Shown here: one piece after another, positions 3,664-32,892 of the stretch
Numbering within the stretch: the first letter of the stretch is position 1
Layout of the letters: every line of letters starts with the position of its first letter
Origin: Candidatus Curtissbacteria bacterium RIFCSPHIGHO2_12_FULL_41_17
Lineage (GTDB): Bacteria; Patescibacteriota; Microgenomatia; Curtissbacterales; GWA2-41-24
Length of the DNA stretch: 34,370 nucleotides
Assembly (NCBI GenBank): GCA_001774945.1
Contig: MFBL01000058.1
Coordinates: 1-34,370, forward strand
Reading direction: 5' to 3'
Translations under genes and position numbers: made by a program
The notes under the pieces: model-generated
What the model was told of the DNA's origin: nothing
Database searches by the model: none
What the model saw: only the letters and a program-made list of their open reading frames with translations

Positions 3664-6555
3664 TCATTTCTTAACAACTTCGATTTCAAACTGGCGGTCG
3701 GCTGCTAAATCGGTTTCGACGGTGAGGTTTTGCTTATTTGAGTACTTTTCATCTCCATTGACAGATTTTGTCAGCAGGTAACCGGGCAGGTTAAATTTAA
3801 ATTCCAAAGGGTCATTTTCGGTTCCGGGCTGTTTTTGGATATACAAGTGATAAGTGGGGGCGCTTTCAAGTTTAATGTTTCTGGGTATGCGATAAGAAAA
3901 ACTTACTTGTTTAGTTGATTTAATAGGCACTTCTACATACGTTGCAAACGTGGCAAGAGGCCCTGTGGTGGTAACTTCAACGGATTTAAGGTCAGTGATG
4001 TCGCCGTTTTTAATCTCAAACAAATCACTTCCCGCGGGTACGTAAACGCGCAGGAAATTAACGTATTTGCCAGCCGGCCAGGTTTCTGCCTGGCTATTAT
4101 TTGTATAAGTAATTGTTAAGCGGCCGACCAGATCCGCATCGCGGCCCACAGTCATTTCGTATGAAATTTTCCTTTGCAAAAACCTATTGACTTTATTGGC
4201 GCCAAGATTAGCTTCGGAAATAGCCAAAAAATCTCTGGTTTGGGTACTGTTATCACTAACATCAAATTGTCTGGGAGGCAATGGGCTGTCCCATCCGTGA
4301 GTGGCTACATAGGAAGCAAGGGTCGGGTTGTCAAATGAGACCAAGATGTGTTTTTTCTCCAGGCTTTCTTTAAAAACTTGCACAAGGGGTAAAAGCGGGG
4401 AAGCTGTCTTTTCATTATCTTTTAAAGTAGTAATTTGGGCAATGTCAGCCAAAACCTGGCTGATCATCTTTCTGGATAAAGACCCAAAAAAATCCCTTTT
4501 TTGGGTGGAACCCGGGAAAAAGCCGACCTCGCTGTAATATTCTCCCCGTTCGAACAGATTCTGGGCAGAAATTTCCTCATTATAATCATCAAGTTTGACA
4601 GGCCCCATTTTCCCAAGAACATCCTGAATAAAAGTTAGGTCGAAAGCAATTACTCCATCGACATTTCGGCCCGTTTCCTTTTTGAAAAAGTCTCTGGCGG
4701 TAGCGGCATTAAGGGCAAAATCGCCGCTCCAGTTAGAATCGCGAAGAAAAAAATTGTCAATTCCTAATTTTTCCTTAAGTTGTTTTGGGGGCTGGATTTT
4801 TTCCTTAAGTTGGCCGTCAATTGTGTAAATATCATCAACATTAACAGCATTTAGTTTCCCGCCTTCAAACTCAAGAGTGCCGAAATTGCCGATAAAGCCT
4901 CCGCCAGGCCGCAGTTCACTATTGTTTTGCAAAAGGATTAGGTAGGTTTTTTGCCCACCGCCGGTGAAGTCATTTAAAAGTTGCGTTATTTCCAGAGCCG
5001 AGGAGGATAAGTTATGGAGTTTTTCGAATGAGTCCTTTAAGGATTCAATTTTTGCTGCAAATGGCGCCGATTTTTTAGCTTGTGAACTTAAGACGACTGC
5101 TTTTGAGGAAAAAAACAAGGCCCTCTTAAAATCAGCTGAGGGCGCCTCCAAATCAAACCCATCGCTACTTGTTTGTTTAGAGGTGATGAGCGCAAAGTCT
5201 TCTGAGAGTGTTTTTGCACCCAGGCTAAAATAGAATAACGATTGAGAACCTGCGCCAGCTGCCGCAAATGCCAGATTGGTGCTTTTTATCTTCTGGGAAA
5301 TTACTAAACTCAATGGGAAAGACAGAATATTAAACTTATTTTGTGCTGCTTTAAAAGAATTTTGGGCACCTTTGGCTTTACTTTCAGCTTTATCAAAGTT
5401 TGCCAACATTAAAGCTTTTTTGGCATCATTTAATTTACTTGCCCCCAAATAAACATCAAGCCCTGTTTTTAAAATAGAGCCAAAAAGAATTAAAAGCAGT
5501 AAGATAACCAAATTTTTAAAACGTAAATTTAAGGTAATTTTGGGGACTTTTAGCCTTAGTCTTTCGGAAAAAGACTGAGTATCTGCCTCTTGGGGGTGCA
5601 ACTTTTCCCAAGACGGGCTTTGGTAATTTGTCCTTTGATGTTCCCTTGGAACTTGGTTTGCGCTTGAAAAAAGGCCCTTATCTTTAAAATATTCAAAGGT
5701 TAGCTTTAGGCCTTCTGTGAGTTTAATATTGGGATTAAAACCTAAATGTGACGCGTTAACTAACGGTTGCGGCGTGATTTTGTTTTTTGCAGGTCCTCCT
5801 GCAAAAAACAAACCCAGCTGCTTTGCACCGACAAGTGAGGCAACATTTTGAATTTCATAAGCAACCGAAAGAGAAGAAATTGGCTCCTCGCAGACAATAA
5901 TCTGCACGTCTTTGGTTTTAGGCGAAAAGGCAAATTTATTAATAGCTTCAACTGCGTCACTGATATAAGTCGGGTAGATCATTTTCATGCCTTCTTCTTC
6001 AAGGATTACCTTGTCTGTTGCAACTGCTTGGGAAATAAGAGATGCCAACTCCTTTTGGACCGGCCCTAGGCTGATTTGAGAAGAAACTGGCATTTTAGGG
6101 CCATAAATGTCACCTACAAGAAATATCCTCAGCTTGGCGCAAGTTGCATCATCTTTTATCAAATAATCAAATGAATCTATCCTAAATGAAAGAGGGGCTA
6201 CCAAAACTACTTGCGTCTTGCCAGTTTGGGCGAGGGCAATTATCGATTTGGTCGCCTGCGAAAAATGATGGAGAGCCTCATACGAATCCTTAGCAACGCC
6301 TGCTTCATCAAGATGAAAGATAAGATCAAACTGTGGTAAATAAGAGGGTAAAGGCTGACCTAATTCAAGCTCAAGAAGCGTAAAATTTTCCTTTGAAAGA
6401 AAAGGACTAAGCAGGCGGGAATTGCCTACCCCAAAAACATCGCAATTTTCAAGTATCAGAGAATCGGTAAGAGATGCACCCAGGTATGAGCCTGCACCGG
6501 TTATGAGAACCTGAGTCCTGTTATTTGAAAGTTTCAAGCGGGCAGATTCTTCCAT
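3664..6555 (-). CDS. Degenerate NAD-dependent epimerase/SDR domain + TM + DUF4012 domain protein
   Basis: N-terminal 'VLITGAGSYLG' Rossmann motif, a central TM helix and the DUF4012 signature 'LLQNNSELRPGGGFIG'. Confidence 0.8.
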   Translation of the reverse strand: MEESARLKLSNNRTQVLITGAGSYLGASLTDSLILENCDVFGVGNSRLLSPFLSKENFTLLELELGQPLPSYLPQFDLIFHLDEAGVAKDSYEALHHFSQATKSIIALAQTGKTQVVLVAPLSFRIDSFDYLIKDDATCAKLRIFLVGDIYGPKMPVSSQISLGPVQKELASLISQAVATDKVILEEEGMKMIYPTYISDAVEAINKFAFSPKTKDVQIIVCEEPISSLSVAYEIQNVASLVGAKQLGLFFAGGPAKNKITPQPLVNASHLGFNPNIKLTEGLKLTFEYFKDKGLFSSANQVPREHQRTNYQSPSWEKLHPQEADTQSFSERLRLKVPKITLNLRFKNLVILLLLILFGSILKTGLDVYLGASKLNDAKKALMLANFDKAESKAKGAQNSFKAAQNKFNILSFPLSLVISQKIKSTNLAFAAAGAGSQSLFYFSLGAKTLSEDFALITSKQTSSDGFDLEAPSADFKRALFFSSKAVVLSSQAKKSAPFAAKIESLKDSFEKLHNLSSSALEITQLLNDFTGGGQKTYLILLQNNSELRPGGGFIGNFGTLEFEGGKLNAVNVDDIYTIDGQLKEKIQPPKQLKEKLGIDNFFLRDSNWSGDFALNAATARDFFKKETGRNVDGVIAFDLTFIQDVLGKMGPVKLDDYNEEISAQNLFERGEYYSEVGFFPGSTQKRDFFGSLSRKMISQVLADIAQITTLKDNEKTASPLLPLVQVFKESLEKKHILVSFDNPTLASYVATHGWDSPLPPRQFDVSDNSTQTRDFLAISEANLGANKVNRFLQRKISYEMTVGRDADLVGRLTITYTNNSQAETWPAGKYVNFLRVYVPAGSDLFEIKNGDITDLKSVEVTTTGPLATFATYVEVPIKSTKQVSFSYRIPRNIKLESAPTYHLYIQKQPGTENDPLEFKFNLPGYLLTKSVNGDEKYSNKQNLTVETDLAADRQFEIEVVKK

Positions 6556-6607
6556 ATTTCGATTTTACTCAATATGGAACCCTGAGTTTGCCGAAGGGTT
6601 CCATTTT
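6550..6607. repeat. 58-bp direct repeat, copy 1 (contains family A hairpin 6574-6604)
   Basis: 57/58 identical to 7220-7277. Confidence 0.9.
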
Positions 6608-7225
6608 CTAAACTTTAAAGTAAGTTTTAAAACCAATCGTTACAAGGGCAAAAACAAATCCTGCGATTGCCCCAAAGATGATAAGGGCTTTGGGTTGAGG
6701 TTGTGCAGTCACAGGCACAATAGCAGTACCAATCGGTTTAAGCTGAAATTCACTGTCCCCAGTCAAATCAACAATTTTTTGATTGAAGCGATCTTTTGTC
6801 TTGTTCATAGTTGATCTGGCACTGTCTAAATTTGCAGCATAGATTGAAAGCCGAATAAGTTGAGGGGCAATTTTTCTGGCAGATAAGGCAGTGGCTTGGG
6901 TTGTCACTTCATTTTTAAAATCAGGGCTTAGAATAATAGCAAGAGCAGTGTCCGTAAAATTCCTGGCTTTCTCGGTGGCGTAAAAGCCTTCAAAACGATA
7001 GACAGCATCTTGCGCTTCTTTGGTGGAAGCAATAGATTCCCCCGTTCTTTCGGCCGGGGTTCTTTCTTCTTCACTCACGCTCATAATAAAAAACAGCTGT
7101 TCATAGCGGGGACCTTTGTTGATTTTTGAGACAAAAACGAGGGCCAAAGCTATCCCTAAAACTGTAAAAAGGGCAACAAGATATGCGTTTTTTTTAAGTA
7201 TTTTGATGTATTCTGCAAGTTCCAT
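6608..7225 (-). CDS. Wzz/YveK-like polysaccharide co-polymerase
   Basis: 'MELAEYIKILKK' start, N- and C-terminal TM helices, Pro-rich segment before TM2; glycan-gene context. Confidence 0.6.
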   Translation of the reverse strand: MELAEYIKILKKNAYLVALFTVLGIALALVFVSKINKGPRYEQLFFIMSVSEEERTPAERTGESIASTKEAQDAVYRFEGFYATEKARNFTDTALAIILSPDFKNEVTTQATALSARKIAPQLIRLSIYAANLDSARSTMNKTKDRFNQKIVDLTGDSEFQLKPIGTAIVPVTAQPQPKALIIFGAIAGFVFALVTIGFKTYFKV

Positions 7226-7277
7226 ATTTCGATTTTAATCAATATGGAACCCTGAGTTTGCCGAAGGGTTCCATTTT
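7220..7277. repeat. 58-bp direct repeat, copy 2 (contains family A hairpin 7244-7274)
   Basis: 57/58 identical to 6550-6607. Confidence 0.9.
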
Positions 7278-7681
7278 TATGTTGCGCCATTTAGCGCGAT
7301 ATTTACCAGTCTATCTGCCTCCTTATTTTTAGCCCTTTCAATATGGCGATAAGAAATTTTACCAAAGTTTGCCTCAAGGCTTCGGACTTTAAAAATCAGT
7401 TCCCTAAGTTTGGCGTTTTTAACCTTATAGCGGCCAGCCATTTGTAAGACCACCAGCTGAGAATCAAGATAAATATTTAAATCGTAAGCTTTAAAGTTTT
7501 GCGATAACCACTTGAGGGCCTCAACCAGTGCAGTATACTCAGCAACATTATTGGTGGCAACACCAATGAAACCGGCCGCTTCTTTTTTTAAGGTACCGTT
7601 TTTTTTAACCACAAATCCCCAGGCAGCCGGCCCGGGATTGCCTCTTGCGCCACCATCGCAATATACGCTAAGTGTGCTCAT
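7277..7681 (-). CDS. rnhA: Ribonuclease HI family protein
   Basis: 'DGGARGNPGPA', 'TNNVAEY', 'DSQLVV', 'NKEADRL' motifs. Confidence 0.9.
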   Translation of the reverse strand: MSTLSVYCDGGARGNPGPAAWGFVVKKNGTLKKEAAGFIGVATNNVAEYTALVEALKWLSQNFKAYDLNIYLDSQLVVLQMAGRYKVKNAKLRELIFKVRSLEANFGKISYRHIERAKNKEADRLVNIALNGAT

Positions 7682-14001: not shown

Positions 14002-15126
14002 ATGAAATGTAAAGTCGCCCAAAATGAACTAGCAAAAGCTTTAAAAGCATGCGAAAAATCGTTTCTAGTTCGTGCCAATTTACCGGTTTTATCAAACATT
14101 TTACTTACTATAAGCAAAAATGGCTTGGAAGCACTTTCGACAAACCTGGAAACAGCTACCAGGGTGGCTGTACCCTGTCAAGGGGAAATTGATGGACGTA
14201 TTACCCTTCCGGGAAGGGTTTTTATGGATTTTATCTGGCAGCTCCCGGAGCAAACACTGGCAATTGAATTACTTGGAGAGGAAGTGCTGGTGACAACAAA
14301 GGGTTATAGCGCAAGGTTTGCCTCAATGCCGGCTGAAGAGTTCCCAGCAATTCCCAAAATAGAAAGCGGTAAAAAAATCGAAATTGAAGCAAGTGTTTTT
14401 GCCAAAGCTTGCGCCCAGGTCGTTTTTTGTGCAGCACAGGACGAAGGCAGGCCTACCTTAAACGGGATTCTTTGCGAACTTAATAAACAGAATTTTTCGA
14501 TGGTGGCAACTGACGGCTACCGTTTGGGATTTGTAACGATTCCAATCGCCGGATCAGTAAGTTTAATAAAGATGATAATACCAGCAAAGACACTCGGGGA
14601 AGTGATTAAGCTGGCAAGTGAATTAGAACAGGAAGAAGACGGAAAATCACTGACAATTACAATAGCAGACACTTTAACCCAGGCTAATTTTAAACTGGGC
14701 AATATCGAGTTTACCTCAAGATTAATTGAGGGCGAATTTCCCAATTGGCAAAAAATAATTCCGGCGAATTTTGCCACCAGCGCCAAAATTTTGCGTGAAG
14801 AATTAACAAGAAGGGTAAGAATAGCAGCTGTTTTTGCCAGGGATAGCGGCAATATCGTCAGGCTTAAATTGGAGGGTAAAAAGCTGACAATTTTGGCAAC
14901 CACAGCTCAGGTGGGTTCAAACGAAACGGAAATGGAGGCGGAGATTAGCGGCAAAGGCGGGGAGATTGCTTTCAACTACCGTTACATTTTAGAGGCACTT
15001 TCTGCGATTGATAGTGAAGTTATTAATTTCCAGATGAGCGAGAGCTTAACCCCCGGGAGGATAACACCCGAAGATACCAAAAGCGGCCTCTTCCAGATCA
15101 TTATGCCGGTCCGACTTCAAGGCTGA
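14002..15126 (+). CDS. dnaN: DNA polymerase III beta clamp
   Basis: 'LPVLSNIL', 'MVATDGYRL', 'SRLIEGEFPNW', 'IIMPVR'. Confidence 0.97.
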   Translation: MKCKVAQNELAKALKACEKSFLVRANLPVLSNILLTISKNGLEALSTNLETATRVAVPCQGEIDGRITLPGRVFMDFIWQLPEQTLAIELLGEEVLVTTKGYSARFASMPAEEFPAIPKIESGKKIEIEASVFAKACAQVVFCAAQDEGRPTLNGILCELNKQNFSMVATDGYRLGFVTIPIAGSVSLIKMIIPAKTLGEVIKLASELEQEEDGKSLTITIADTLTQANFKLGNIEFTSRLIEGEFPNWQKIIPANFATSAKILREELTRRVRIAAVFARDSGNIVRLKLEGKKLTILATTAQVGSNETEMEAEISGKGGEIAFNYRYILEALSAIDSEVINFQMSESLTPGRITPEDTKSGLFQIIMPVRLQG

Positions 15127-15157
15127 CATTTGACAATTGACCATTAACATTTAACAT
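15124..15157 (+). repeat. Left 7-nt array flanking four-helix-bundle gene 1
   Basis: tgacatt tgacaat tgaccat taacatt taacat-ATG. Confidence 0.85.
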
Positions 15158-15532
15158 ATGCGCAAGTTCCGCTTTAGAAAATTTAAAGTTTACCAAGACG
15201 CCATCAGGTTTCGAATGCGCATTAAGGCTTTAACGAATAAGTATTTCCCAAAAGACGAGAAGTATTTAATTATAGATCAAATCATTAGGGCAGCAAACTC
15301 AATTGTTCTGGCAATTGCTGAGGGCGCGGATCGATCAACTGACAAAGACTTTGCTTTATTTCTCAATCGTGCCCACACCTCTTTAAACGAGGTTGTTGCT
15401 TGTTTAGATATTGCCCTTGCCGAGAAATTTATAAGCCTGCGGGTTTACTTGGAGTATGTTGCCGAAGCGGAGAATTTGGCAAACCAGATAACCGCATTTA
15501 GAAGAAAATTATTAATAAGCCCTTCTAAGTAG
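15158..15532 (+). CDS. Four helix bundle protein (23S rRNA IVP / Avd-like family)
   Basis: 'FRKFKVYQ...FPKDEKY..IDQIIRAANSIVLAIAEG..R...DF..FL..A..SLNE'. Confidence 0.9.
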   Translation: MRKFRFRKFKVYQDAIRFRMRIKALTNKYFPKDEKYLIIDQIIRAANSIVLAIAEGADRSTDKDFALFLNRAHTSLNEVVACLDIALAEKFISLRVYLEYVAEAENLANQITAFRRKLLISPSK

Positions 15533-15536
15533 TATT

Positions 15537-15571
15537 TTTGTCAATTGTCACCTGTCAAATGTCAATTGTAT
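15537..15571 (-). repeat. Right 7-nt array (inverted) flanking four-helix-bundle gene 1
   Basis: tttgtca attgtca cctgtca aatgtca attgtat, the reverse complement of TGACAww units. Confidence 0.85.
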
Positions 15572-16942: not shown

Positions 16943-19900
16943 TTAAGGGATACAACTTTGTAGATCATTTATTGAGAGACCTACTGTCGGTTCTGCTGGA
17001 ATATTAGGAGGTGCCATTGCCCCGCCTGATTTAAAATCATAGTGCAAGTGGCTACCACTAGGTTTATCATCAGGGTCTGTAAGACCGGAATAGCCCATCG
17101 TTCCGACCACTTGACCGCACGATACAGTTTGATTTTGGGACACGGAAAAAGATTGCATATGAGCATAGAGAATCCTAAAGTCATCCTTAACGATATTGAT
17201 AAAGTTGCCGGCTAATTCATTTGAATCACACTCGTGGTTGTCATACTCGGCCTCCGAGCAATCGTTAACACTCACCGTTACTTTACCGTTGTTGATTGTC
17301 GCATAGAGAGGTGTTCCGAGAGCGTTGGTAATGTCTATGGTCTCATTGTGGTATGGGGGGACGTGAGTTCCTTGGCTAATCGTTCCTGTCGTTGGCCAGC
17401 CGCATGGATGGGTCTCACATACTGGCGGATTGCCTATTTTGACACTTGCAGAATCACTGCCGGTGATTGTATCTGGTTGGCCTTCCGGTTTGGCTGTGAC
17501 GGTTACGGTATTGACTACCAATGTATCGGTGTAGTCGTTGTTAATAGAATTGATTTTAAAGCTGCAGCTCCAGGTTGCATGAGCGGTCAAGCTTGTAGGT
17601 GGGGCTGGGTTGCAATCGATAAGGAGGGGTTGGTGGCCCTGATCATTTTGCTTAATGTCGTAATGTTTATTTAGGCCATCTACCGTAATGTTATCGTCGG
17701 TTATTACGATTTCTGACAAGTTGGTATCCTTGACAGTTAAGGTAATCGTAAAAGTGATGTTGGTATCTGGGAGAATAAGCGTTGTAGGATTCGCACTTTT
17801 TTCGATTTTAAAATAGGCGTTATCCGCATTAGTGGGGCCACCAATTTCTTTATCCGTACTAAAAAAACTGGTGGCGGTGGTGATGCCGACGATTAAAGAG
17901 CCGATGGTAATCGCGCCGATTCCGCCGAATACCGGCACGGCGATTACAAAAGTAGGAATCGACAAAGACCCGAGCCCTCCGACTAAAAATCCCATGGCGC
18001 CGGATAAACCTGAGAAAGCTATTCCTACTCCGGCGGTAAGACCGCCCCAGATAGTTGAGGCCAGACCGGTGACAAAACCGGCAAGTCCCGTCGCCGCCCC
18101 AGCACCAACATTGCCGGCGCCGGTAAGAAAATCCTTCACCTGGGACCAGCCTCCGGCTAGTAACCAACCGATGCCGGCACCAATTAAAGCACCGGGCGGT
18201 CCGCCAAAGTAAAATCCAATGGCTGCTCCGGCTAGGGCTCCCGAAGCCGGTGCGCCGATTGTGCCAATGACGTATTTCCCAACTAGGTAACCAATAGCTG
18301 CTCCCACAAAAGTACCGACAACTGCTCCGATCGCTGCACCGGTAAATGCTCCCATAGCGGTAAAAACAGGAATTAATGGGGTTGCTAGGCCGCCGGTAAT
18401 GACAGCAAGACCAGTACCGATAGCGGTGCCAATGCTGGCGCCGACAACTGCTCCCGCGTAAGTGCCGATAACTCCGCCAATTGCCGCACCACCGCCCATG
18501 GAAACAGCCGTTGTGCTACCGGAGGTAAGTCCAAGTGCTATCAATCCACCAGCAACTCCACCTACAAACGCGCCAACAAATCCCCCGCCAAGTATCCCTA
18601 ACCCGGTAAATATTGGAATTGATAAGCCAAAAGTAAACGGAGCTAGCGCAACACCGATTTGAAAGCCGAGGAATCCACCGACTCCCATTCCGACAACCCC
18701 ACCCACACCTGCCCCAATAAGGGCTCCCATAAGCGCTGCCTTACCAAACATCATATAGAAGAAGAGCAGCATGCCTCCAACAAGGACAGCAGCCCCCTTC
18801 CAAATACGATTCATCAAATTACCTGCTGCGGAAGCAATACCCAAGCCTAAACTTTTAGTTGTAATTGTTTTTCCCATACCAAGTGTCGGCGACATAAAAC
18901 TTTCTCTAAGTGACCCGAAAAGATCACCCAGTCCCAGCTTTGGAGAAAGCAGGCTTAAGGTGTTGCGGGCCATAAATATGGGGTTGCCGGAAAGGCTTCT
19001 TGGAGCATAGACTCCGGGGAAGTTACCCATTGCCGCTTCTCGTGAGGTGATTGCGGCCTGATAGGCAAGCGTTAAATTATGTCCGCCGGCAGGCGCAGGT
19101 ATAGACTGCACCAAAGCCATCCAGTTTTTGGCACGCTGTTCGTTTTTAGCCCTGAATGTAAATGCCCTCCCTAAAGCTTGCAAATTTTTCTGGGCTAAAA
19201 GATAGGCTTTGCGGTCTTTGTAAGTTAGCGATCTTTGCTTTTTAAGTTTTTCGACTTGGGATCTTGCCCCGCTTAATTGTTTTTCCAGCCAGCCTCTGTC
19301 GTGGCTGATTAGGGCGTTGTCAAATTGCTCCTGACCCTTGTTTGAAGCAAGCATCATTCTCATCATGAAAGCGTTAACCCCTTTTGCCTGCCCGACAGAT
19401 GCAAACTGGGTGCTTTGCGGATCCAGTCCTAAAATGAAGCCAATTCTGTTGGTAATATCGGTCGGATCAATTCTGCCTTTGAACCTGACGTTTTTGGCAA
19501 ATTCTCCTGAAGCTTCACTGAATGCGGCCGATTTGGCAGTCTGATATGAGGCAAAATCGGGTATTTTACCCTGGGAAAGTTGCGGCTGTATGCGCGCATT
19601 TAAATTGCCAAGATAAGTCTGCAGAAAACCGGAGGTATTGCCGTATAAAGTTTGGTTTACATCGGGTTTGGCCAGAGGCATTCTTGTGGCAACCGCTTGA
19701 TCGACGGCTCCGACAACTAGGGTTCTTAATTGTTCGTCCGGTTTTTCGAGCCTGGCAATATTGACGATTGAGCCTAAAACAGCCGCTTTGGCCAAATCAT
19801 TTTGGTGAGCTTGGGCAACGTCTTGCGTCTGCTTGAGCAGCCCTGCAAATATTTTTCCTTCATTTATCTTCAATTTTCCGTCAAGTTCGGGATGGGCGAC

Positions 19901-20239
19901 GATTGACTGGGTGAGGCTGTCGGCAATCACGGTATTGGCCTCGTTAAAATTATTTATTTTGGCGATATTTTCCAAAATATCGCGGCTGCTTTCGGCGGCG
20001 ATTTCGGCGGCAAGCCGGCTAACAGTACTTTTATCAACGCCGGAAACTACTCTATTTAGAGTTTGGCTGATTTTTGCCTCAAGTGTTGCTGCCAGTTTTT
20101 GCGATACTTCACTTTGATGACTGGCTAAATCTTTCTGAAGAGTGGATATTTCAAGCCTGGAGGTACTATTTTGGGCAGGTTTGGCAGACGTTTGAGTTGG
20201 CATGACAGACTCCACGTTCATGTTAACTGAACGTGGCAA
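16943..20239 (-). CDS. Large Gly-zipper membrane protein with Ig-like domain and C-terminal M23 peptidase
   Basis: About 330 aa of GxxxG hydrophobic repeats; M23 motifs 'H...IDI', 'YAHM', 'GTMGYSG', 'HLHY'. Exact start uncertain. Confidence 0.8.
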   Translation of the reverse strand: MPRSVNMNVESVMPTQTSAKPAQNSTSRLEISTLQKDLASHQSEVSQKLAATLEAKISQTLNRVVSGVDKSTVSRLAAEIAAESSRDILENIAKINNFNEANTVIADSLTQSIVAHPELDGKLKINEGKIFAGLLKQTQDVAQAHQNDLAKAAVLGSIVNIARLEKPDEQLRTLVVGAVDQAVATRMPLAKPDVNQTLYGNTSGFLQTYLGNLNARIQPQLSQGKIPDFASYQTAKSAAFSEASGEFAKNVRFKGRIDPTDITNRIGFILGLDPQSTQFASVGQAKGVNAFMMRMMLASNKGQEQFDNALISHDRGWLEKQLSGARSQVEKLKKQRSLTYKDRKAYLLAQKNLQALGRAFTFRAKNEQRAKNWMALVQSIPAPAGGHNLTLAYQAAITSREAAMGNFPGVYAPRSLSGNPIFMARNTLSLLSPKLGLGDLFGSLRESFMSPTLGMGKTITTKSLGLGIASAAGNLMNRIWKGAAVLVGGMLLFFYMMFGKAALMGALIGAGVGGVVGMGVGGFLGFQIGVALAPFTFGLSIPIFTGLGILGGGFVGAFVGGVAGGLIALGLTSGSTTAVSMGGGAAIGGVIGTYAGAVVGASIGTAIGTGLAVITGGLATPLIPVFTAMGAFTGAAIGAVVGTFVGAAIGYLVGKYVIGTIGAPASGALAGAAIGFYFGGPPGALIGAGIGWLLAGGWSQVKDFLTGAGNVGAGAATGLAGFVTGLASTIWGGLTAGVGIAFSGLSGAMGFLVGGLGSLSIPTFVIAVPVFGGIGAITIGSLIVGITTATSFFSTDKEIGGPTNADNAYFKIEKSANPTTLILPDTNITFTITLTVKDTNLSEIVITDDNITVDGLNKHYDIKQNDQGHQPLLIDCNPAPPTSLTAHATWSCSFKINSINNDYTDTLVVNTVTVTAKPEGQPDTITGSDSASVKIGNPPVCETHPCGWPTTGTISQGTHVPPYHNETIDITNALGTPLYATINNGKVTVSVNDCSEAEYDNHECDSNELAGNFINIVKDDFRILYAHMQSFSVSQNQTVSCGQVVGTMGYSGLTDPDDKPSGSHLHYDFKSGGAMAPPNIPAEPTVGLSINDLQSCIP

Positions 20240-20276
20240 GGAAACTCCTAGCTAGATTAAATATATCACAGGGTGA

Positions 20277-20380
20277 CGTTAATCGGTTACGAAGCCCGTA
20301 TCGTAAAGCGTTTTTCGGTAACGTGATTAATACGCTTGACGTAACCGCTCAACGAAACGAGCATCGTTACCGTAAACCGA
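20277..20380 (+). mobile_element. Gene-less copy of the two arms that flank four-helix-bundle gene 2 (MITE-like)
   Basis: 20277-20304 matches revcomp 27049-27076 at 27/28; 20339-20380 matches revcomp 26580-26620 with 4 mismatches and 1 indel. Confidence 0.7.
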
Positions 20381-20395
20381 CCTACGCTCCAGTTG

Positions 20396-22246
20396 TCAGC
20401 CGCTTGGCGGATTCTGTGGCGTCTGGTCTTCGAATTCTTTAAGAATGGCTGCTGATTTTTTCTGCATCTCCAAAAGCTCTTCCGGGTTGGTGGTAACCAA
20501 GTAGTGTTCGTCTTCGGAGGCAACTACCCTGATTGCCACATGATTTGGGCCGGCAAAGAAAATACCCTCGCCGACATCTGCGGACAAAAGCAAATGTTTC
20601 TCGCCTTCTGAAAGATAAAAAACCTCGGAAACCTGATCGATTGCCGCAGGCGACTGTTTAAGAAGAATTTGGATGGAAGAGTTGGTGACAATGGCCTTAC
20701 CGTAATCTGTAGCTAAGAAATCCTGAACGTCTTGGGTGATAGTCGTTAATCCCAAATAATATTTTCTCGCTCTTTTGGCAATGGAATACATAAAAGTGGC
20801 GCTGTCCGGATACTGCATCAGGTACCAGGCTTCATCAACTATCAGGATTCTTTTCCTGATGTCGTTTTTGATGCGTGTCCAGATGTAGTCTAAAATCAGG
20901 TACATGGCAATCGGCCTAAGCTCGTCTTCCAGATCTTTAATCGAAAAGACAGTGAAGGTGTTTTTAATATCGATATTTGACTGCTGGTTAAAAATGCCAA
21001 TCAGGGAACCCTTAACAAATTTTTCTAAGCGATCGGCAAGACCTTTTGCCTGGGGTTCTTCCATTCCAAGAAGTGCCTTGTATAGATCTTCCATTAAGGG
21101 CGGTTCGTTTTTTTGCGTTGCCGGATCGGGAGTAATGCCTTTTGATTTATAAGTGGCAACCAAGGCTCTATCTAAAATCGCGTCTTCAGTCGGGGTAAGT
21201 TGGCCCATGATAACTCTAAGGAGTCCGTGCAGAGAAAGAATTTTAAGTCCAAGTTCATTTTCTCCTTCCTCATAAACCCCGGAAAGATCAAAGGGATTAA
21301 TTTTGGCAGCAGAGCTGAAATTAAATGAAATGTATTCTCCGCCTATCGCCTCACAAAGATTTTTATATTCCTCTTCGGGATCAATGACAATGATTTCCGT
21401 GCCGAACATTAAAGACCTTAAAGCTTCCAGTTTAACCAGATAAGATTTGCCGGCACCGGACTTGGCAAAAATGACGGCATTGGCATTTTCCTGGCTGAAT
21501 CTGTCAAAAATTACCAATGAGCCGTTATGCTCGTTGACTCCGTACATTACACCGGTATTGGATGAGAGGGTTGATGAGATAAAAGGGAAGGTGGTGGCCA
21601 GTGAGGTCGTATCCATATTTCGGGTAATATAAATATGGTCTGTTCCCTGGGGCAGAGTTGTTTTGAAAGCCTCCTCCTGCTGCAGGGTTGCGTGTTTGGG
21701 GACGAGCAAAAGAGCACCCAGGGTTGATTCTACTTGTTTGGAAATGGAGGCCAATTCTTCCAGCGAGTCTGCTGGAACCGTAACATAGAGTCCGAACTGG
21801 AAAAAGCGCTCTGCACCCTTAACTAATTCTTCCTGTAAAATCTGGGCATCTTCCAAAGCTGCCTGTACAGCCGGGTCGAGGACTTTGCCATGCTGAATAT
21901 CGGTAGCAATGGTTGCCTCCATTTCGGTCACCTTTCTTTTTAAATCGTCAAGCACACCCTTTGCCTCCACAGGGTAACAATACATGGCAATTTCCAGGGT
22001 ATGTTCAAAGTTAATTATAGGTGCGAGCCAGTTTGCCTGGACAAACCTTGGGTAGCCGACGACAAACAGGGTTCGAAAGAAAGTTGAGCCGACTTTTAAG
22101 TAGTCAAAATCGACCTCGATTGCCGGAGGGGCAACGATATCCTTAACAGAAACTATCCCGTTGGCTAGTGTCTGGGCCCACTTCTTTTCCCTCTCAGGAA
22201 GCTGTGTTTGGGTTTTTTTGGGTTTTAACAAATCAAATAAACTCAT
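20396..22246 (-). CDS. virB4: VirB4/ConE-like secretion ATPase
   Basis: Walker A 'AKSGAGKS', 'VIDPEEEY', 'KINPFD', Walker B 'LIVDEAW', 'RARKY..G...ITQ'. Confidence 0.9.
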   Translation of the reverse strand: MSLFDLLKPKKTQTQLPEREKKWAQTLANGIVSVKDIVAPPAIEVDFDYLKVGSTFFRTLFVVGYPRFVQANWLAPIINFEHTLEIAMYCYPVEAKGVLDDLKRKVTEMEATIATDIQHGKVLDPAVQAALEDAQILQEELVKGAERFFQFGLYVTVPADSLEELASISKQVESTLGALLLVPKHATLQQEEAFKTTLPQGTDHIYITRNMDTTSLATTFPFISSTLSSNTGVMYGVNEHNGSLVIFDRFSQENANAVIFAKSGAGKSYLVKLEALRSLMFGTEIIVIDPEEEYKNLCEAIGGEYISFNFSSAAKINPFDLSGVYEEGENELGLKILSLHGLLRVIMGQLTPTEDAILDRALVATYKSKGITPDPATQKNEPPLMEDLYKALLGMEEPQAKGLADRLEKFVKGSLIGIFNQQSNIDIKNTFTVFSIKDLEDELRPIAMYLILDYIWTRIKNDIRKRILIVDEAWYLMQYPDSATFMYSIAKRARKYYLGLTTITQDVQDFLATDYGKAIVTNSSIQILLKQSPAAIDQVSEVFYLSEGEKHLLLSADVGEGIFFAGPNHVAIRVVASEDEHYLVTTNPEELLEMQKKSAAILKEFEDQTPQNPPSG

Positions 22247-25051: not shown

Positions 25052-25061
25052 TTCCTTAGAA

Positions 25062-25154
25062 AATTTTCAATTTACAATTTTAAATTTTCAATCAATTTAT
25101 AATAATTTAATTTTTAAACATTTAGATTTCATTTCAAATTAAAAATTAAAAATT
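25062..25154. repeat. Inverted AT-rich 7-nt arrays upstream of prgI
   Basis: aattttc aatttac aatttta aattttc ... tcaaatt aaaaatt aaaaatt. Confidence 0.6.
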
Positions 25155-25254: not shown

Positions 25255-26565
25255 CTACGGATTAAAGCGGAAGCCCTGCCCTTTTACTGTTATTGTATGC
25301 TTAGGATTGTTGGGATCATCCTCGGTTTTTTTACGCAGGCGATAAATTAGCTGGTCAATTGCTTCGTCTGTGATACCCTCGGCGACTAGGGCTTGCGGCC
25401 AGACTGCTTTGATGATTTCATCGCGAGTTATAAGGCGGCCTTGATTTTCGATTAAAAACTGCAGCAGGCGATATTCTTGCGGCGAAAGCAGGTCAGTAAT
25501 CAGATTTTGCCCCCTCATTATCTCCTTTGTCTTCTCGTTAAAAGTAAATTTTTCCGAAATCAGAGTGGGAACAGTGCTTATTACAAATTCTTTTAACAAT
25601 GGGATAGTAAAAATATATTGTTGTATTGTTAAATTGCCTGCCTGCCGGCGAGGCAGGTTAGATTGTTCCAATTTCTTAAGCAAATCGAATTTAATAAGAT
25701 TCTCCAGGGTATCTTTCATCGGCTCTTTGTTTTGGGCAACTGACCTGAGAGCCTGTTGCTCCGGAGCAGTTAAGGCCAGCCAAATTTCGGAAAGGGTCGC
25801 TTGGACAATTTGTGTTTTAAGGAGAGTATCCATATCAAGCGAAATATTTTCCCTGAGATGTGATTCTGCCAAGACTTTAGTCAGTTTAATATGTCCGCCT
25901 GAAATATCTATGATTTTTTCTTTATCTTTTTGGGGAATTTTTTTGTCAAATACCCGTTCAATTTGCGAAAAGAGGAGATTAGTGGCAGCCTCGTCATGGA
26001 TTGCAAGATAGACAATATTGCCGGTAAAAAAATCATAGAAATCCTTCAAAATCTCCCCGTCAACAAGTTCTGTCAGATCTCTTCTGGTTGCAAAGGCTAC
26101 TGCAAATTTATATTTGGCGATACTTTTGAGGCTTCTTAACAGCTGAAAGAATGATCTGGGAATCCGGTTTTGATATTCGTCAAAGTGATCGAAAAGAAAA
26201 ATAATAGTTTGACCTTGTACAACAAGTTTATTGACAGCCTCGGTTAACTTTTTTGTCAGAACAAAGTAATCGCCAGTATTAGGCGCTTTTTCGTCGAGTG
26301 CTACAAGCAAAAACTTGGCGATCTGTTCCTCTTGATAGTTAGTATGTTCCAAATTTAAGTAGAGAAAACGGACAGCCTCCTCTTTTTCTTTAAGGTGGAA
26401 CTTTAGCAAATTGCGGTTATGGGAAAGAAGCCGAAGAATTGTGGCTTTGCCGGCACCGGGAATGCAGACAATTTGGCAGAATTTACCCGTAAGTACATAG
26501 TCTAATATTTGTTTGACTTCCCCCCGGCGGTAGTCGTTTGGGAATGTGGACTCGAAGATAAGCAT
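25255..26565 (-). CDS. P-loop (STAND/AAA-like) ATPase with C-terminal OmpR-type winged HTH
   Basis: 'IPGAGKAT', 'FLFDHFD'; C-terminal 'LSPQEYRLL..L..N.GR..TRDEI..AVW...IYRLRKK.EDDP..P....TVKGQGFRF'. Confidence 0.85.
   Translation of the reverse strand: MLIFESTFPNDYRRGEVKQILDYVLTGKFCQIVCIPGAGKATILRLLSHNRNLLKFHLKEKEEAVRFLYLNLEHTNYQEEQIAKFLLVALDEKAPNTGDYFVLTKKLTEAVNKLVVQGQTIIFLFDHFDEYQNRIPRSFFQLLRSLKSIAKYKFAVAFATRRDLTELVDGEILKDFYDFFTGNIVYLAIHDEAATNLLFSQIERVFDKKIPQKDKEKIIDISGGHIKLTKVLAESHLRENISLDMDTLLKTQIVQATLSEIWLALTAPEQQALRSVAQNKEPMKDTLENLIKFDLLKKLEQSNLPRRQAGNLTIQQYIFTIPLLKEFVISTVPTLISEKFTFNEKTKEIMRGQNLITDLLSPQEYRLLQFLIENQGRLITRDEIIKAVWPQALVAEGITDEAIDQLIYRLRKKTEDDPNNPKHTITVKGQGFRFNP
25613..25673. 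repeat. 8-nt array interrupted by a CCTGCC palindrome, in frame
   Basis: atatattg ttgtattg ttaaattg [cctgcctgccggcgaggcagg] ttagattg ttccaatt. Confidence 0.7.
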
Positions 26566-26579
26566 TCTAATAAGTTGTA

Positions 26580-26620
26580 TCGGTTACGGTAACGATGCCC
26601 GTTTCGTTTGTCGGTTACGT
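26580..26620 (-). repeat. 3' arm (inverted repeat) of four-helix-bundle cassette 2
   Basis: Imperfect inverted repeat of 27036-27070; includes the last codon and the stop. Confidence 0.8.
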
Positions 26621-27019
26621 GGTAAGTCTTTTGAACTTACTCCAAGCGATACTTAATTTGTAAAGCTGTCTTCCGGATTTATCGTAAATATCAACGAGTT
26701 GATCAATAATTTTCTTGTCTATGTTATATAGATCGCGAGCTTGCTCGAGGCTAACAATCGTCTCATTGCACTCGCCCATGGCATCGTCAAGGTACTTCTG
26801 AAAACCAGCCCTCTGATGCCGTTTAGCATAACCTTCTGCTATAAGCCTTGGAATTGCCTTTGCGGATCTTGCGAGTTGATCGTGAAGATCAAACTTCTCA
26901 CTGTTTGGTAGCTTGGGTAATACTTCTTTATAAACTATGATCATTGCTTTATAAGTATTTTGGTAGACTTCAAGATCTCTAAAGCTTTTTATAATAGTTT
27001 TGTTCCCTGAGCTGTTCAT
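26615..27019 (-). CDS. Four helix bundle protein (23S rRNA IVP / Avd-like family)
   Basis: 'IKSFRDLEVYQ...LPNSEKFDL.DQL.RSAKAIPRLIAEGY.KR....F.KYL..A.GE.NE'. Confidence 0.92.
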   Translation of the reverse strand: MNSSGNKTIIKSFRDLEVYQNTYKAMIIVYKEVLPKLPNSEKFDLHDQLARSAKAIPRLIAEGYAKRHQRAGFQKYLDDAMGECNETIVSLEQARDLYNIDKKIIDQLVDIYDKSGRQLYKLSIAWSKFKRLTT

Positions 27020-27035
27020 AATTCAGTACCCCTTA

Positions 27036-27076
27036 ACGTTACCCCTAAACGATACGGGCCTCGTAACCGATTAACG
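27036..27076 (-). repeat. 5' arm (inverted repeat) of four-helix-bundle cassette 2
   Basis: Coding strand reads cgttaatcggttacgaggcccgtatcgtttaggggtaacgt; a TATAAT lies just upstream (27095-27090). Confidence 0.8.
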
Positions 27077-27228
27077 CTAAACTAATCAAATTATAAGCGA
27101 AATATAAGGAACTTGTTACCCAGATATCAAGCGAAGCTGGAAGCACTTGTGTAGGATTTGGGGCTATGAATGAACATTCGGTTGCAATTGGAAGTCCGAG
27201 ATCTTATCCTATAAGTAGAGGCAATATT

Positions 27229-32828: not shown

Positions 32829-32892
32829 CCTTCGACCCTTCGGTAAGCTCAGGGCAAGCACTTCGATAAACTCAGTGCATGCAAGCTCAGGA
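32828..32892. repeat. Nested family A REP-like hairpins
   Basis: tccttcga[cccttcggtaagctcaggg]caa[gcacttcgataaactcagtgc]atgcaagctcagga. Confidence 0.75.

Follow-up and report, generated by a model that had tools for sequence, protein, structure and literature searches.

Among the closest described systems to the elements analyzed here are the intervening sequences (IVSs) of rRNA genes and their S23p ORFs, which to our knowledge have been without explanation since about 1990. PF05635 is the protein family encoded in 23S rRNA IVSs. The PF05635/TIGR02436 ORF family is common; we know of no function assigned to it outside diversity-generating retroelements, and of no catalytic activity of the four-helix-bundle proteins. 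Among dispersed palindromic repeats, the REP/REPIN elements are served by RAYT (Y1 HUH) transposases. The 23S IVS of Coxiella is described as a stem of 28-bp terminal inverted repeats with tandem heptamers and the S23p ORF in its loop (PMC4990558, in the part available to us). According to the accessible parts of PMC4990558 and PMC11270868, IVSs came under suspicion of being mobile 30 years ago, and this has never been shown; Table S4 of the latter lists IVP ORFs in rRNA insertions of CPR bacteria. PF05635/TIGR02436 ORFs also occur inside operons, e.g. in cas loci (PMC3936711, accessible part). Literature searches on the ORF family in such settings yielded no description of elements like the present ones outside rRNA, and the accessible part of a review covering MITEs (PMC10969869) contains 0 mentions of "four-helix" or "intervening sequence".

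The window (the whole 34,370-nt stretch of Candidatus Curtissbacteria DNA analyzed here) contains at 20277-20380 a hairpin that we interpret, with a probability of about 75%, as one of the non-autonomous members, MITE-like and lacking an ORF, of an IVS-type family of selfish cassettes borne on hairpins (Table 1). A repeat search of the whole window found 20277-20304 complementary to 27049-27076 (28 nt, 96%, 27/28) and 20339-20375 complementary to 26584-26620 (37 nt, 89%, 33/37), which bears out the claim of the initial annotation that both arms match the flanks of a gene-bearing element ("cassette 2"); the 34 nt between the two arm matches, the opposite orientation, the distance of about 6.2-6.7 kb and the location between the virB4 and M23 genes are also as it described them. 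With up to 3 mismatches allowed, the 28-mer occurs nowhere else in the window (0/100 dinucleotide shuffles gave any match) and the 37-mer matches itself alone, because its partner differs at 4 positions. The initial annotation missed that the arms of 20277-20380 are inverted repeats of each other; the element is therefore one hairpin, though an imperfect one, and the cassette is a version of it whose loop contains a gene. In gene-bearing copies the ORF is at the position equivalent to the inner part and loop. The letters ACG TAA, which had been taken for the retained last codon and stop of the gene, are indeed present, but they are part of the inner CGTAACC heptad of the palindrome and not a relic codon.

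Searched with an nhmmer profile of 68 family members, the hairpin scored 80.8 bits (E-value 4.5e-23). The folding energy predicted for the minus strand, which is the transcribed one, is -44.0 kcal/mol (z -2.9); for the plus strand it is -34.9 kcal/mol (z -1.3). A scan of 20100-20500 revealed neither a promoter nor a terminator, no terminator-like tail follows the stem, and Rfam, searched with the whole window at E-values up to 1, reported nothing for the hairpin, the sole weak match being an S15 leader elsewhere. A 2324-nt contig from an independent sequencing run covers positions 19900-20821 with 0 differences, so that the locus is not an assembly artefact, which the initial annotation had named as a possible refutation.

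Table 1. Coordinates of the hairpin, the gene-bearing cassettes and their neighbours in the window.
Feature	Position	Strand	Remarks
ORF-less hairpin element	20277..20380	.	complete imperfect palindrome in the virB4/M23 intergenic spacer
Left 20-nt core arm GGTTACGAAGCCCGTATCGT	20285..20304	+	
Right 20-nt core arm GGTAACGATGCTCGTTTCGT (minus-strand reading)	20352..20371	-	core positions 4, 9, 12 and 16 mismatched between the two arms
Inner part and loop	20305..20351	.	heptad pair GGTAACG 20317-20323 / CGTAACC 20340-20346
VirB4-like conjugal transfer ATPase gene	20396-22246	-	NF045971, E 1.3e-116; upstream neighbour of the hairpin
Gene for 1098-aa protein with C-terminal M23 peptidase domain	16943-20239	-	downstream neighbour; likely ATG 20220 or 20202
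ORF-bearing family member (cassette 2)	26580..27078	-	
Cassette 2 5' core arm GGTTACGAGGCCCGTATCGT	27049..27068	-	
Cassette 2 3' core arm GGTAACGATGCCCGTTTCGT (plus-strand reading)	26588..26607	+	
Gene for 134-aa four-helix-bundle protein	26615..27019	-	PF05635 23S_rRNA_IVP, TIGR02436
TATAAT hexamer, putative promoter of the regulator gene	27090..27095	-	12 nt upstream of cassette 2
Gene for 436-aa regulator with OmpR/PhoB-type winged-helix C-terminus	25255..26565	-	ATG 14 nt downstream of 26580
Cassette 1	15124..15564	+	PF05635 gene 15158-15532 inside its own TGACAAT-heptad inverted arms

In cassette 2 the inner heptad of the 3' arm, CGTAACC, contains the stop codon of the gene, position 26580 is the outermost copy of the 3'-arm repeat, and the arms pair in the 531-nt cassette RNA (z -3.8). 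A counterpart of the TATAAT hexamer is found upstream of the regulator ATG in the cassette-free relative G004 (the genome under study is denoted G000, with C58, C17 and C12 as its contigs; other G and L numbers refer to relatives and scanned loci, respectively); if the hexamer is the promoter, cassette 2 would sit in the leader of the regulator gene. The arms of cassette 1 are unrelated to those of cassette 2: the architecture is alike, the family different. The closest solved structures to the 134-aa protein are 2GSC and 2RLD (five chains listed for each), and none of the Avd chains matched it by sequence. A HEPN-type R-x(4-6)-H motif was not evident by eye in its conserved columns, and the HEPN literature offered nothing relevant. 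The ORF is under purifying selection (median pairwise dN/dS 0.119, with 0/77 usable pairs above 1), and 64 of the 69 ORFs in the same analysis are intact. The elements encode no enzyme of a known mobility class, the PF05635/TIGR02436 four-helix-bundle protein being their sole gene; the initial annotation, which saw no known transposase in the cargo, was right on this point.

The family is marked by a conserved 20-nt core, GGTWACGAWGCCCGTWTCGT. The profile search found only 3 ORF-less copies in this genome (C58:20277-20380, C17:6930-7037 and C12:3722-3808), in addition to the two ends of cassette 2, which is the only ORF-bearing copy. With up to 3 mismatches, the core is present in 9 of the 31 further genomes examined from this taxonomic family and in 0 of 29 outside that family within the same order or class, while a control with the reversed pattern gave 2 matches across 61 genomes; filled and empty copies, for which the initial annotation proposed a search of the genome and its relatives, do exist. 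When one genome per species was scanned for the exact core, at least 120 stretches were obtained. Among the 120 listed, 64 are paired with an inverted arm no more than 140 nt away, and 3 of the 120 hold the ORF; the 56 without a partner arm fit the ~70 single-arm matches that we expect by chance (our own arithmetic, from 17 specified bases and about 1.2e12 positions). Judging by record titles, the paired ones among the matches listed include Omnitrophota, Nitrospirota, Syntrophaceae, Desulfobacteraceae, Thermodesulfobacteriota, Patescibacteria, Planctomycetes, Ignavibacteriales and WOR-3. The ORF-less copies have a median length of 90 nt (among 85) and fuzzy ends, because the outer heptads vary. 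Proteins of other gene-bearing copies show 69% (G018), 75% (L169), 75% (L115) and 70% (L163) amino acid identity. Copies within one genome are 0.78 identical versus 0.76 between genomes, therefore there is no sign of a recent burst or of recent amplification within a genome. The filled and the empty copy of the window show 0.75 identity over 88 nt of their ends and copies from other phyla reach 0.81; the two are members of the family and neither recent twins nor nearest relatives, although the initial annotation had called the empty copy a twin.

Among 80 loci with metagenomic homologues (proteins 66-82% identical), both arms flank the ORF in 68; the remaining 12 comprise five with the 3' arm and the 5' side off the contig, four with the 3' arm only, one with the 5' arm only and two with none. 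Neighbour genes differ among the 80 loci, the next largest protein cluster reaching 8/80, and no transposase, integrase or invertase recurs beside the elements in this set. Arms and ORF recur together in unrelated contexts, in agreement with the earlier proposal that the arms define a unit with and without cargo. Both within a genome and between genomes of several phyla, the elements are found at unrelated loci, mostly short spacers of co-directional genes and occasionally, in frame, the inside of genes, and the gene-bearing copies are almost always co-oriented with the host genes: 50/57 upstream and 43/50 downstream neighbours share the strand of the ORF, and among the 40 copies with both neighbours, both are co-directional with the ORF in 30 and both antisense in 2. 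The ORF-less copies exhibit no strand bias relative to transcription; 56 of 85 lie between co-directional ORFs, 9 between convergent and 6 between divergent ones, 8 overlap an ORF and 6 are at the edge of the locus. Rfam at the gathering threshold reported 0 matches, rRNA included, for 40 of the 80 cognate loci, and no rRNA genes are assembled in G000. Fourteen larger or intermediate arm pairs contain no recognisable ORF remnant, and L229 has one frameshifted full-length ORF. Nesting in other palindromes is weakly enriched (at least 12/16 complementary in 20/84 versus 19/246 controls), with three clear cases, G000:C17 among them. Joints at 26607->27035/27045 ("skips 427/437") in contigs of the sequencing runs have sides of 27-29 nt with other letters between them; we read these as probable other hairpin copies in the communities.

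Comparison of orthologous sites revealed that the virB4/M23 spacer has no such hairpin in G001, G025 and G005, other heptad hairpins in G004, G015 and G021, and, in G016, a gene-bearing cassette of another kind. At the regulator leader, G004, G011, G009 and G006 have no cassette, and G001/G013 and G016/G029 have other cassette families. In-frame copies of 87 nt were found inside LeuRS (G025) and Obg (G013), the two clear cases among the 85 copies, and the G000 orthologues have gaps of 27 aa (LeuRS) and 21 aa (Obg) at these insertions; the LeuRS site of G005 bears a different insertion. This presence and absence at orthologous sites, together with ORF-less copies far outnumbering ORF-bearing ones, supports the pairing of autonomous and MITE-like forms suggested in the initial annotation. 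No target-site duplication was definable at the virB4, regulator and LeuRS sites, the flanks of the intergenic empty sites being too diverged and the ends fuzzy, and such divergence of the intergenic flanks leaves no precise empty-versus-occupied junction or transposition event demonstrable in the relatives.

Of the 1020 cells in the comparison of arm pairs, 859 are Watson-Crick, whereas re-dealing the arms among the elements gave a mean of 807.6 (maximum 829), and 47 cells are compensatory: the arms co-vary. In the 68 ORF-less copies 93% of the cells are paired with 0 compensatory changes, a result that shuffles equal, and the long stem was not found by RNAalifold; this set was gathered by an exact core pattern and therefore cannot show covariation. 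The core sequence itself is conserved, not the pairing alone, which also fits a conserved motif with a function for the host.

For the selfish cassette family we propose the following scheme. Each element is an imperfect palindrome with the 20-bp core, extended by GGTWAC-type heptads, and a minority of copies carry one promoter-less PF05635 four-helix-bundle gene in the apical loop. The elements probably insert as DNA into tolerated, transcribed places, where the ORF would ride on host transcription, and the ORF-less copies could be either mobilised in trans or the residue after loss of the cargo. The copy at 20277-20380 would then be a passenger between the virB4 stop and the next gene's promoter-like motif, which is conserved, and in the operon transcript it would form a mismatched stem-loop of ~40 bp. 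The four-helix-bundle protein would be the only element-encoded candidate for a mobility factor. Tentatively, and at somewhat less than even odds, we speculate further that PF05635 proteins (S23p, Avd-like) serve as the trans-acting mobility or maintenance factor of an unrecognised superfamily of heptad-arm hairpin cassettes, which could colonise transcribed places that are safe for insertion (rRNA helices in the case of the classical IVSs, spacers in operons, leaders of genes, and loops on the surface of essential proteins) and spread between phyla, with the ORF-less hairpins as their MITEs. The W.W mismatches fixed at core positions 4, 9 and 16 of the stem may in that case mark strand or structure, to be read on the single-stranded hairpin, whether DNA or RNA, by the PF05635 protein or by a host enzyme that it recruits.

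Alternatively, though we consider it improbable, the hairpin could be a conserved cis-acting RNA element of host operons (an RNase III site, an mRNA stabiliser or an insulator) and not selfish DNA, with the four-helix-bundle gene merely borrowing the same stem for its own expression. The conservation of the core across phyla, ORF-less copies included, the 0 compensatory changes in the ORF-less set and the predominance of spacers between co-directional genes (56/85) would all be expected of such an element; RNase III is encoded in G000, and this enzyme acts on the stems of rRNA IVSs and on Correia elements (PMC4990558, PMC2649163, in their accessible parts). However, the copies are not at orthologous sites, the virB4/M23 spacer being devoid of this hairpin in a same-genus genome and in most relatives, and any copy at all is found in only 9/31 genomes of the family. 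Furthermore, ORF-less copies lie in either orientation to transcription, cleavage would be harmful at the two in-frame copies in essential genes, and the hairpin has neither an Rfam family match nor a terminator-like tail after its stem.

That the hairpins adjoin unrelated genes also makes it very unlikely that 20277-20380 is an operator by which the cassette's protein regulates the T4SS-like operon in trans, although the arm sequence is common to the protein's own flanks 6 kb off in the same locus, and although Avd proteins, the PF05635 relatives in diversity-generating retroelements, bind nucleic acid. The cognate gene is missing from 8 of 10 hairpin-bearing genomes of the family (best identity at most 35%), G004, G022 and G025 having many hairpins and no cognate gene, whereas G018 has the gene and unrelated sequence at the virB4 site; the same data lend no support to a trans-acting site in the T4SS mRNA, as had been suggested initially. 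Nor are the window's two copies closer to each other than the family average. We give the least credence, next to none, to the proposal that the T4SS-like block inverts, in a programmed or recombinational manner, between the arm pairs at 20.3 and 26.6-27.1 kb, an idea that was also raised in the initial annotation and that derives from the two inverted-repeat pairs (28 and 37 nt) about 6.2-6.7 kb apart: gene order is collinear in G004 and G001, where the order and relative orientation M23-virB4...regulator-big gene are the same with the arms missing at both sites, contigs from an independent run cover both junctions in the reference arrangement, with no opposite-strand joint between the two places, and no invertase recurs beside the elements. 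Neither excision nor inversion at the hairpin locus was seen in contigs of 4 of the 20 listed runs (85% likeness), a kind of data that cannot exclude rare variants.

Altogether, these results show that one PF05635 subfamily is obligately embedded in a conserved imperfect palindrome, which is far commoner without the gene, and this suggests that the rRNA "intervening sequences" belong to a larger class of selfish elements. The nature of IVSs thereby becomes testable, with regard to hairpin binding, movement and the cutting/joining factor. The repeat family can also confuse the annotation of small-genome groundwater bacteria, by adding peptides to essential proteins and causing intergenic ORFs to be called wrongly.

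Compared with known systems, the ORF-less copies resemble MITEs in being small, multi-copy and devoid of coding capacity, with terminal inverted repeats; unlike in MITEs, the gene-bearing element that shares their ends (68/80) encodes no transposase. With Correia/CREE, ERIC and RPE elements they share the size of ~100 nt, the inverted ends and the co-transcribed stem-loops (PMC10969869, PMC2649163, PMC2229807), and with RPE the in-frame insertion in essential genes (PMC10969869), as in the LeuRS and Obg copies, the window copy itself being intergenic; these likenesses refer to the accessible parts of the articles. The arm core is, however, conserved across phyla and not within one genus. Like REP/REPIN-RAYT, the elements are dispersed intergenic palindromic doublets, far commoner than the protein gene they flank, and imperfect hairpins with fixed mismatches, but the flanked gene encodes a four-helix-bundle protein and not a Y1 transposase, and the distribution crosses phyla; the palindromes beside the two Y1_Tnp-like genes of G000 are different ones, with no arm core nearby, and we rejected this identity. 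The PF05635-type four-helix bundle recalls the related superfamily of Avd of diversity-generating retroelements; such a retroelement was also rejected, given no RVT_1 match in G000, no template/variable repeat nearby and no recurring neighbour in the 80 loci. Promoter-less ORFs with imperfect palindromes, conserved mismatches and, in some genomes, cassette arrays (L115, L248) are reminiscent of integron cassettes with attC sites, an identity discarded on the grounds that the ORF lies inside the palindrome and not beside it, that the arms are without RYYYAAC/GTTRRRY core sites and that no integrase recurs. An rRNA IVS by location was discarded too, as the window copy lies between protein genes and no rRNA was detected in the 40 of 80 cognate loci scanned. 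With the rRNA IVSs of Leptospira, Coxiella and CPR bacteria the elements nonetheless share the terminal-inverted-repeat stem, the arm heptamers, the PF05635 ORF in the loop and the ORF-less short versions; unlike those IVSs, they reside in spacers, leaders and coding sequences of protein genes and not in rRNA helices, and they are multi-copy, with one arm core common across phyla.

The stretch 20277-20380 had been described in the initial annotation as an 'empty' twin with both arms of the nearby four-helix-bundle cassette (26580-27078, minus strand), and its sequence is as read there. Among the longest inverted repeats reported by a repeat search of the window are 20277-20304/27049-27076 (28 nt, 96%) and 20339-20375/26584-26620 (37 nt, 89%); at a limit of 3 mismatches, those two sites are the only matches of the 28-mer in the window, and 0 of 100 shuffles matched. 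A point overlooked earlier is that the 5' and 3' arms are mutual inverted repeats, thus the 104-nt stretch is a single imperfect hairpin, with a predicted fold of -44.0 kcal/mol (z -2.9) on the minus (transcribed) strand and -34.9 kcal/mol (z -1.3) on the plus strand. The triplets ACG TAA are present, but they belong to a CGTAACC heptad in the inner part of the palindrome and are not a retained last codon and stop. The suspicion of an assembly artefact can be dismissed, since an independent public run yielded a 2324-nt contig that spans 19900-20821 with 0 differences. A different 25-nt palindrome, CCACGTTCATGTTAACTGAACGTGG, lies at 20212-20236 at the start/leader of the M23 gene, and recurs with 96-100% identity in the source genome (G000:C12:451) and in genomes G017, G024, G005 and G011.

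Features of the hairpin, the cassette and their neighbours in the window
Feature	Position	Strand	Source
Left core GGTTACGAAGCCCGTATCGT	20285-20304	+	arm comparison
Right core GGTAACGATGCTCGTTTCGT, as read on the other strand	20352-20371	-	arm comparison
VirB4-like ATPase, neighbour of the short copy	20396-22246	-	domain search
1098-aa M23-domain protein, neighbour of the short copy	16943-20239	-	domain search
134-aa four-helix-bundle protein gene, PF05635 (23S_rRNA_IVP)/TIGR02436	26615-27019	-	domain search
Second PF05635 gene, in unrelated TGACAAT-type heptad inverted arms (15124-15564)	15158-15532	+	repeat and domain search

In the cassette, the gene occupies the loop of this same hairpin, and a 531-nt fold (z -3.8) has the arms paired. 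The nearest solved structures of the encoded protein by sequence are 2GSC and 2RLD (five chains listed for each). The ORF ends inside the 3' arm, and in many other gene-bearing copies too it ends within this arm or abuts it. A TATAAT (27090-27095, minus strand) is located 12 nt upstream of the cassette, and the ATG of the regulator gene 14 nt past the outermost 3'-arm repeat; in the cassette-free genome G004 a TATAAT lies ~25 nt upstream of the equivalent ATG. The ORF is probably promoter-less and reliant on host transcription. A protein-based search yielded homologs at 80 metagenomic loci (66-82% identity), 68 of which exhibit the 5' arm upstream and the 3' arm downstream (≤5 mismatches, an estimated ~2% false positives per side); among the remaining 12, five carry the 3' arm but run off the contig on the 5' side, four have the 3' arm only, one the 5' arm only and two neither. 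Gene-bearing elements are typically 464-485 nt long. Beyond the 80 loci, there is one at an unrelated locus of a different genus (G018, 69% amino acid identity), and others were found in locus L169 (75%), on an Ignavibacteriales contig (75%) and on a contig with the label Gammaproteobacteria (70%). Of 69 copies, 64 have an intact ORF, which is under purifying selection (median dN/dS 0.119; above 1 in none of 77 usable pairs). No neighbor gene recurs among the 80 loci, the largest protein cluster after the ORF covering 8 of them. Gene and arms are one unit. Four loci (L115 3926-5165, from the Ignavibacteriales contig, L248, L252 and L274) contain tandem arrays of hairpin units of ~124 nt (or ~66 nt); one unit of the L115 array holds the four-helix-bundle gene without its own 3' arm.

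A profile of 68 family members identified, besides both cassette ends, exactly three ORF-less copies in the source genome (836 kb in 58 contigs, the window being one entire contig): C58:20277-20380, C17:6930-7037 and C12:3722-3808. Of the other genomes in the family, 9 of 31 contain the 20-nt core (≤3 mismatches), nearly always as arm pairs 38-142 nt end to end, while none of the 29 genomes of the same order or class that fall outside the family gave a match; a reversed-pattern control gave 2 matches over all 61 genomes. An exact scan for GGTNACGANGCCCGTNTCGT, one genome per species, returned at least 120 stretches, where by our arithmetic chance alone would give ~70 single matches. For 64 of the 120 listed, an inverted partner arm lies no more than 140 nt away, which gives 70 hairpins (median 90 nt); the partner-less matches come mainly from GC-rich taxa, as expected from chance. 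Sources of the hairpins, among the 80 titles listed, comprise Omnitrophota, Nitrospirota, Syntrophaceae, Desulfobacteraceae, Thermodesulfobacteriota, Patescibacteria, Planctomycetes, Ignavibacteriales, Rikenellaceae and WOR-3 MAGs. As the four-helix-bundle ORF is present at just 3 of the 120 arm-selected loci listed, ORF-less copies are about twenty-fold commoner than gene-bearing ones there. The proposal that the arms delimit a unit existing with and without cargo is supported: a conserved hairpin, with or without a single gene, is scattered over loci, genomes and phyla.

Across 85 distinct ORF-less copies, the core is Watson-Crick paired at 17 of its 20 positions in 58-98% of cases (position 20 being the weakest), whereas at positions 4, 9 and 16 pairing is absent in 78-89% and T.T or A.A is found in 54-80%. 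Gene-bearing copies are alike (60-73% mismatched at these positions), and the outer flanks carry further GGTAAC heptads, the centre again mismatched. In the protein-ascertained set, arms within one element match better than arms swapped among elements, with 859 of 1020 Watson-Crick cells observed vs a mean of 807.6 (sd 6.8, maximum 829) for arms re-dealt in 1000 trials, a control that can be inflated by kinship among elements; 47 cells are compensatory.

Most ORF-less copies (56/85) have co-directional ORFs on either side, and many of them fill the spacer to within 10-60 nt; nine lie between convergent and six between divergent ORFs, six at locus edges, and eight overlap an ORF by crude ORF calling. 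They reveal no strand preference (sense-strand A.A vs T.T 19:12, 18:11 and 21:20). Gene-bearing copies share the strand of the upstream neighbor in 50 of 57 cases and of the downstream one in 43 of 50, and of 40 cases both neighbors are co-directional in 30 vs antisense in 2; orientation thus matters solely when the ORF is present. Two 87-nt copies sit in frame within essential genes, LeuRS of G025 (L011 1501-1587) and the Obg GTPase of G013 (L016 1434-1520), both translated as GNEARIV.GK.V....KRQTLNE..LVTD, i.e. similar peptides of ~29 aa; the source-genome orthologs (contigs C37 and C14) lack the segment, with gaps of 27 and 21 residues. In G005, a congener of G025, LeuRS contains a different ~45-aa insertion (C29, L302) at a site matching L011 1440-1650, which makes this linker a recurrent insertion spot.

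The VirB4-like gene is kept in 25 of 31 family genomes, and what follows its stop differs: the hairpin in the source genome, an unrelated AACAAT-type low-complexity stretch in G001 (same genus), other heptad-arm hairpins in G004, G015 and G021, a different PF05635 cassette in G016, and a short spacer only in G025, G005 and G019; a promoter-like TG-n-TATAT motif just downstream is common to all compared genomes. Likewise, the leader of the regulator gene contains no cassette in G004, G011, G009 and G006, a second cassette family in G001 and G013, and a third in G016 and G029. Presence and absence at orthologous sites, and tolerance within coding sequences, are direct observations.

Other repeat elements occur in the same genomes. 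The PF05635 genes examined in the source genome and its relatives each lie in their own heptad-periodic inverted arms (by eye 7 of 10 in the source genome, with more in the family), and these private arms in the source genome are stop-codon-rich. The C17 copy is nested in the loop of an AAGTACG-heptad hairpin (C17:6873-7093; L286 2066-2286), the composite folding at -79.5 kcal/mol (z -3.4). Two 58-nt direct repeats (6550-6607 and 7220-7277, 98% identical, two small palindromes apiece) flank a minus-strand ORF (6608-7225, 205 aa, weak Wzz-like match), after which comes an RNase H-like gene (7277-7681). AT-rich heptad-like repeats (AATTTTC, AATTTAC and similar) occupy 25061-25118, between a PrgI-like gene and the regulator stop; summed over contigs, their depth is very high in four metagenome runs, which shows that repeats like them abound in the communities sampled. 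Copies of a short GCCCTTCGnnnnnnCTCAGGGC-type motif lie at 901-921, 32835-32855 and 32858-32878 and at G000:C12:3596-3624, with related copies (93-100% identity) in many family genomes.

The elements probably insert as DNA at tolerated, transcribed sites, and the copy at 20277-20380 is probably a passenger lying after the virB4 stop and ahead of the promoter of the next gene, where it would be transcribed as a mismatched stem-loop. An alternative, which we consider unlikely, treats the hairpin as a conserved functional motif. It could draw on the fact that no insertion junction or target duplication is definable at the orthologous sites compared, where intergenic flanks have diverged, and that copies within one genome are no closer (0.78) than copies between genomes (0.76). 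It could equally draw on the facts that the window's empty and filled copies, described earlier as twins, are not each other's nearest relatives (0.75 identity over 88 nt vs 0.81 to a copy on an Omnitrophota contig), that no ORF remnants were found in hairpins of intermediate size, that the cognate gene is absent from 8 of 10 family genomes bearing hairpins, and that the ORF-less set is conserved in sequence with no compensatory change. Copies lying in frame, and ORF-less copies indifferent to orientation, speak against an obligatory role in RNA processing. The suggested operator and inversion-endpoint roles found no support, while an autonomous/MITE-like pair with a non-transposase cargo is in substance supported. 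As to the machinery of the putative insertion, no enzyme recurs, which leaves the four-helix-bundle protein as the sole element-encoded candidate factor. The source genome (87% complete) encodes RNase III and gave no match to the RVT_1 reverse transcriptase. Its two Y1_Tnp-like (IS200/RAYT-type) ORFs (G000:C44:2036-2659, 207 aa, and G000:C27:9692-10363, 223 aa) are not associated with the hairpin family, each lying between its own small palindromes of another kind.

Among known objects, rRNA intervening sequences (IVSs) come closest. The Coxiella IVS is described as a 28-bp inverted-repeat stem that has an S23p ORF in its loop and GACAGAT heptamers in tandem and is excised by RNase III, and its origin from a mobile element is presented there as proposed and never shown (PMC4990558). 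CPR bacteria are also reported to carry IVP ORFs in 16S and 23S insertions (PMC11270868), and such ORFs are known from cas operons (PMC3936711); our literature searches on the PF05635 ORF family turned up no gene-in-hairpin elements with ORF-less copies outside rRNA. The elements described here match no integron cassette or diversity-generating retroelement, nor any Rfam family in scans of the window and of 40 of the 80 cognate loci. They share the IVS architecture but not its defining location, and make the old IVS/S23p question directly testable. Their behavior resembles that of MITEs, REPINs and the Rickettsia palindromic elements (PMC10969869), to none of which they are assigned because they have no associated transposase or RAYT and no established target duplication; we classify them as a new variety of IVS-type, MITE-like palindromic element.
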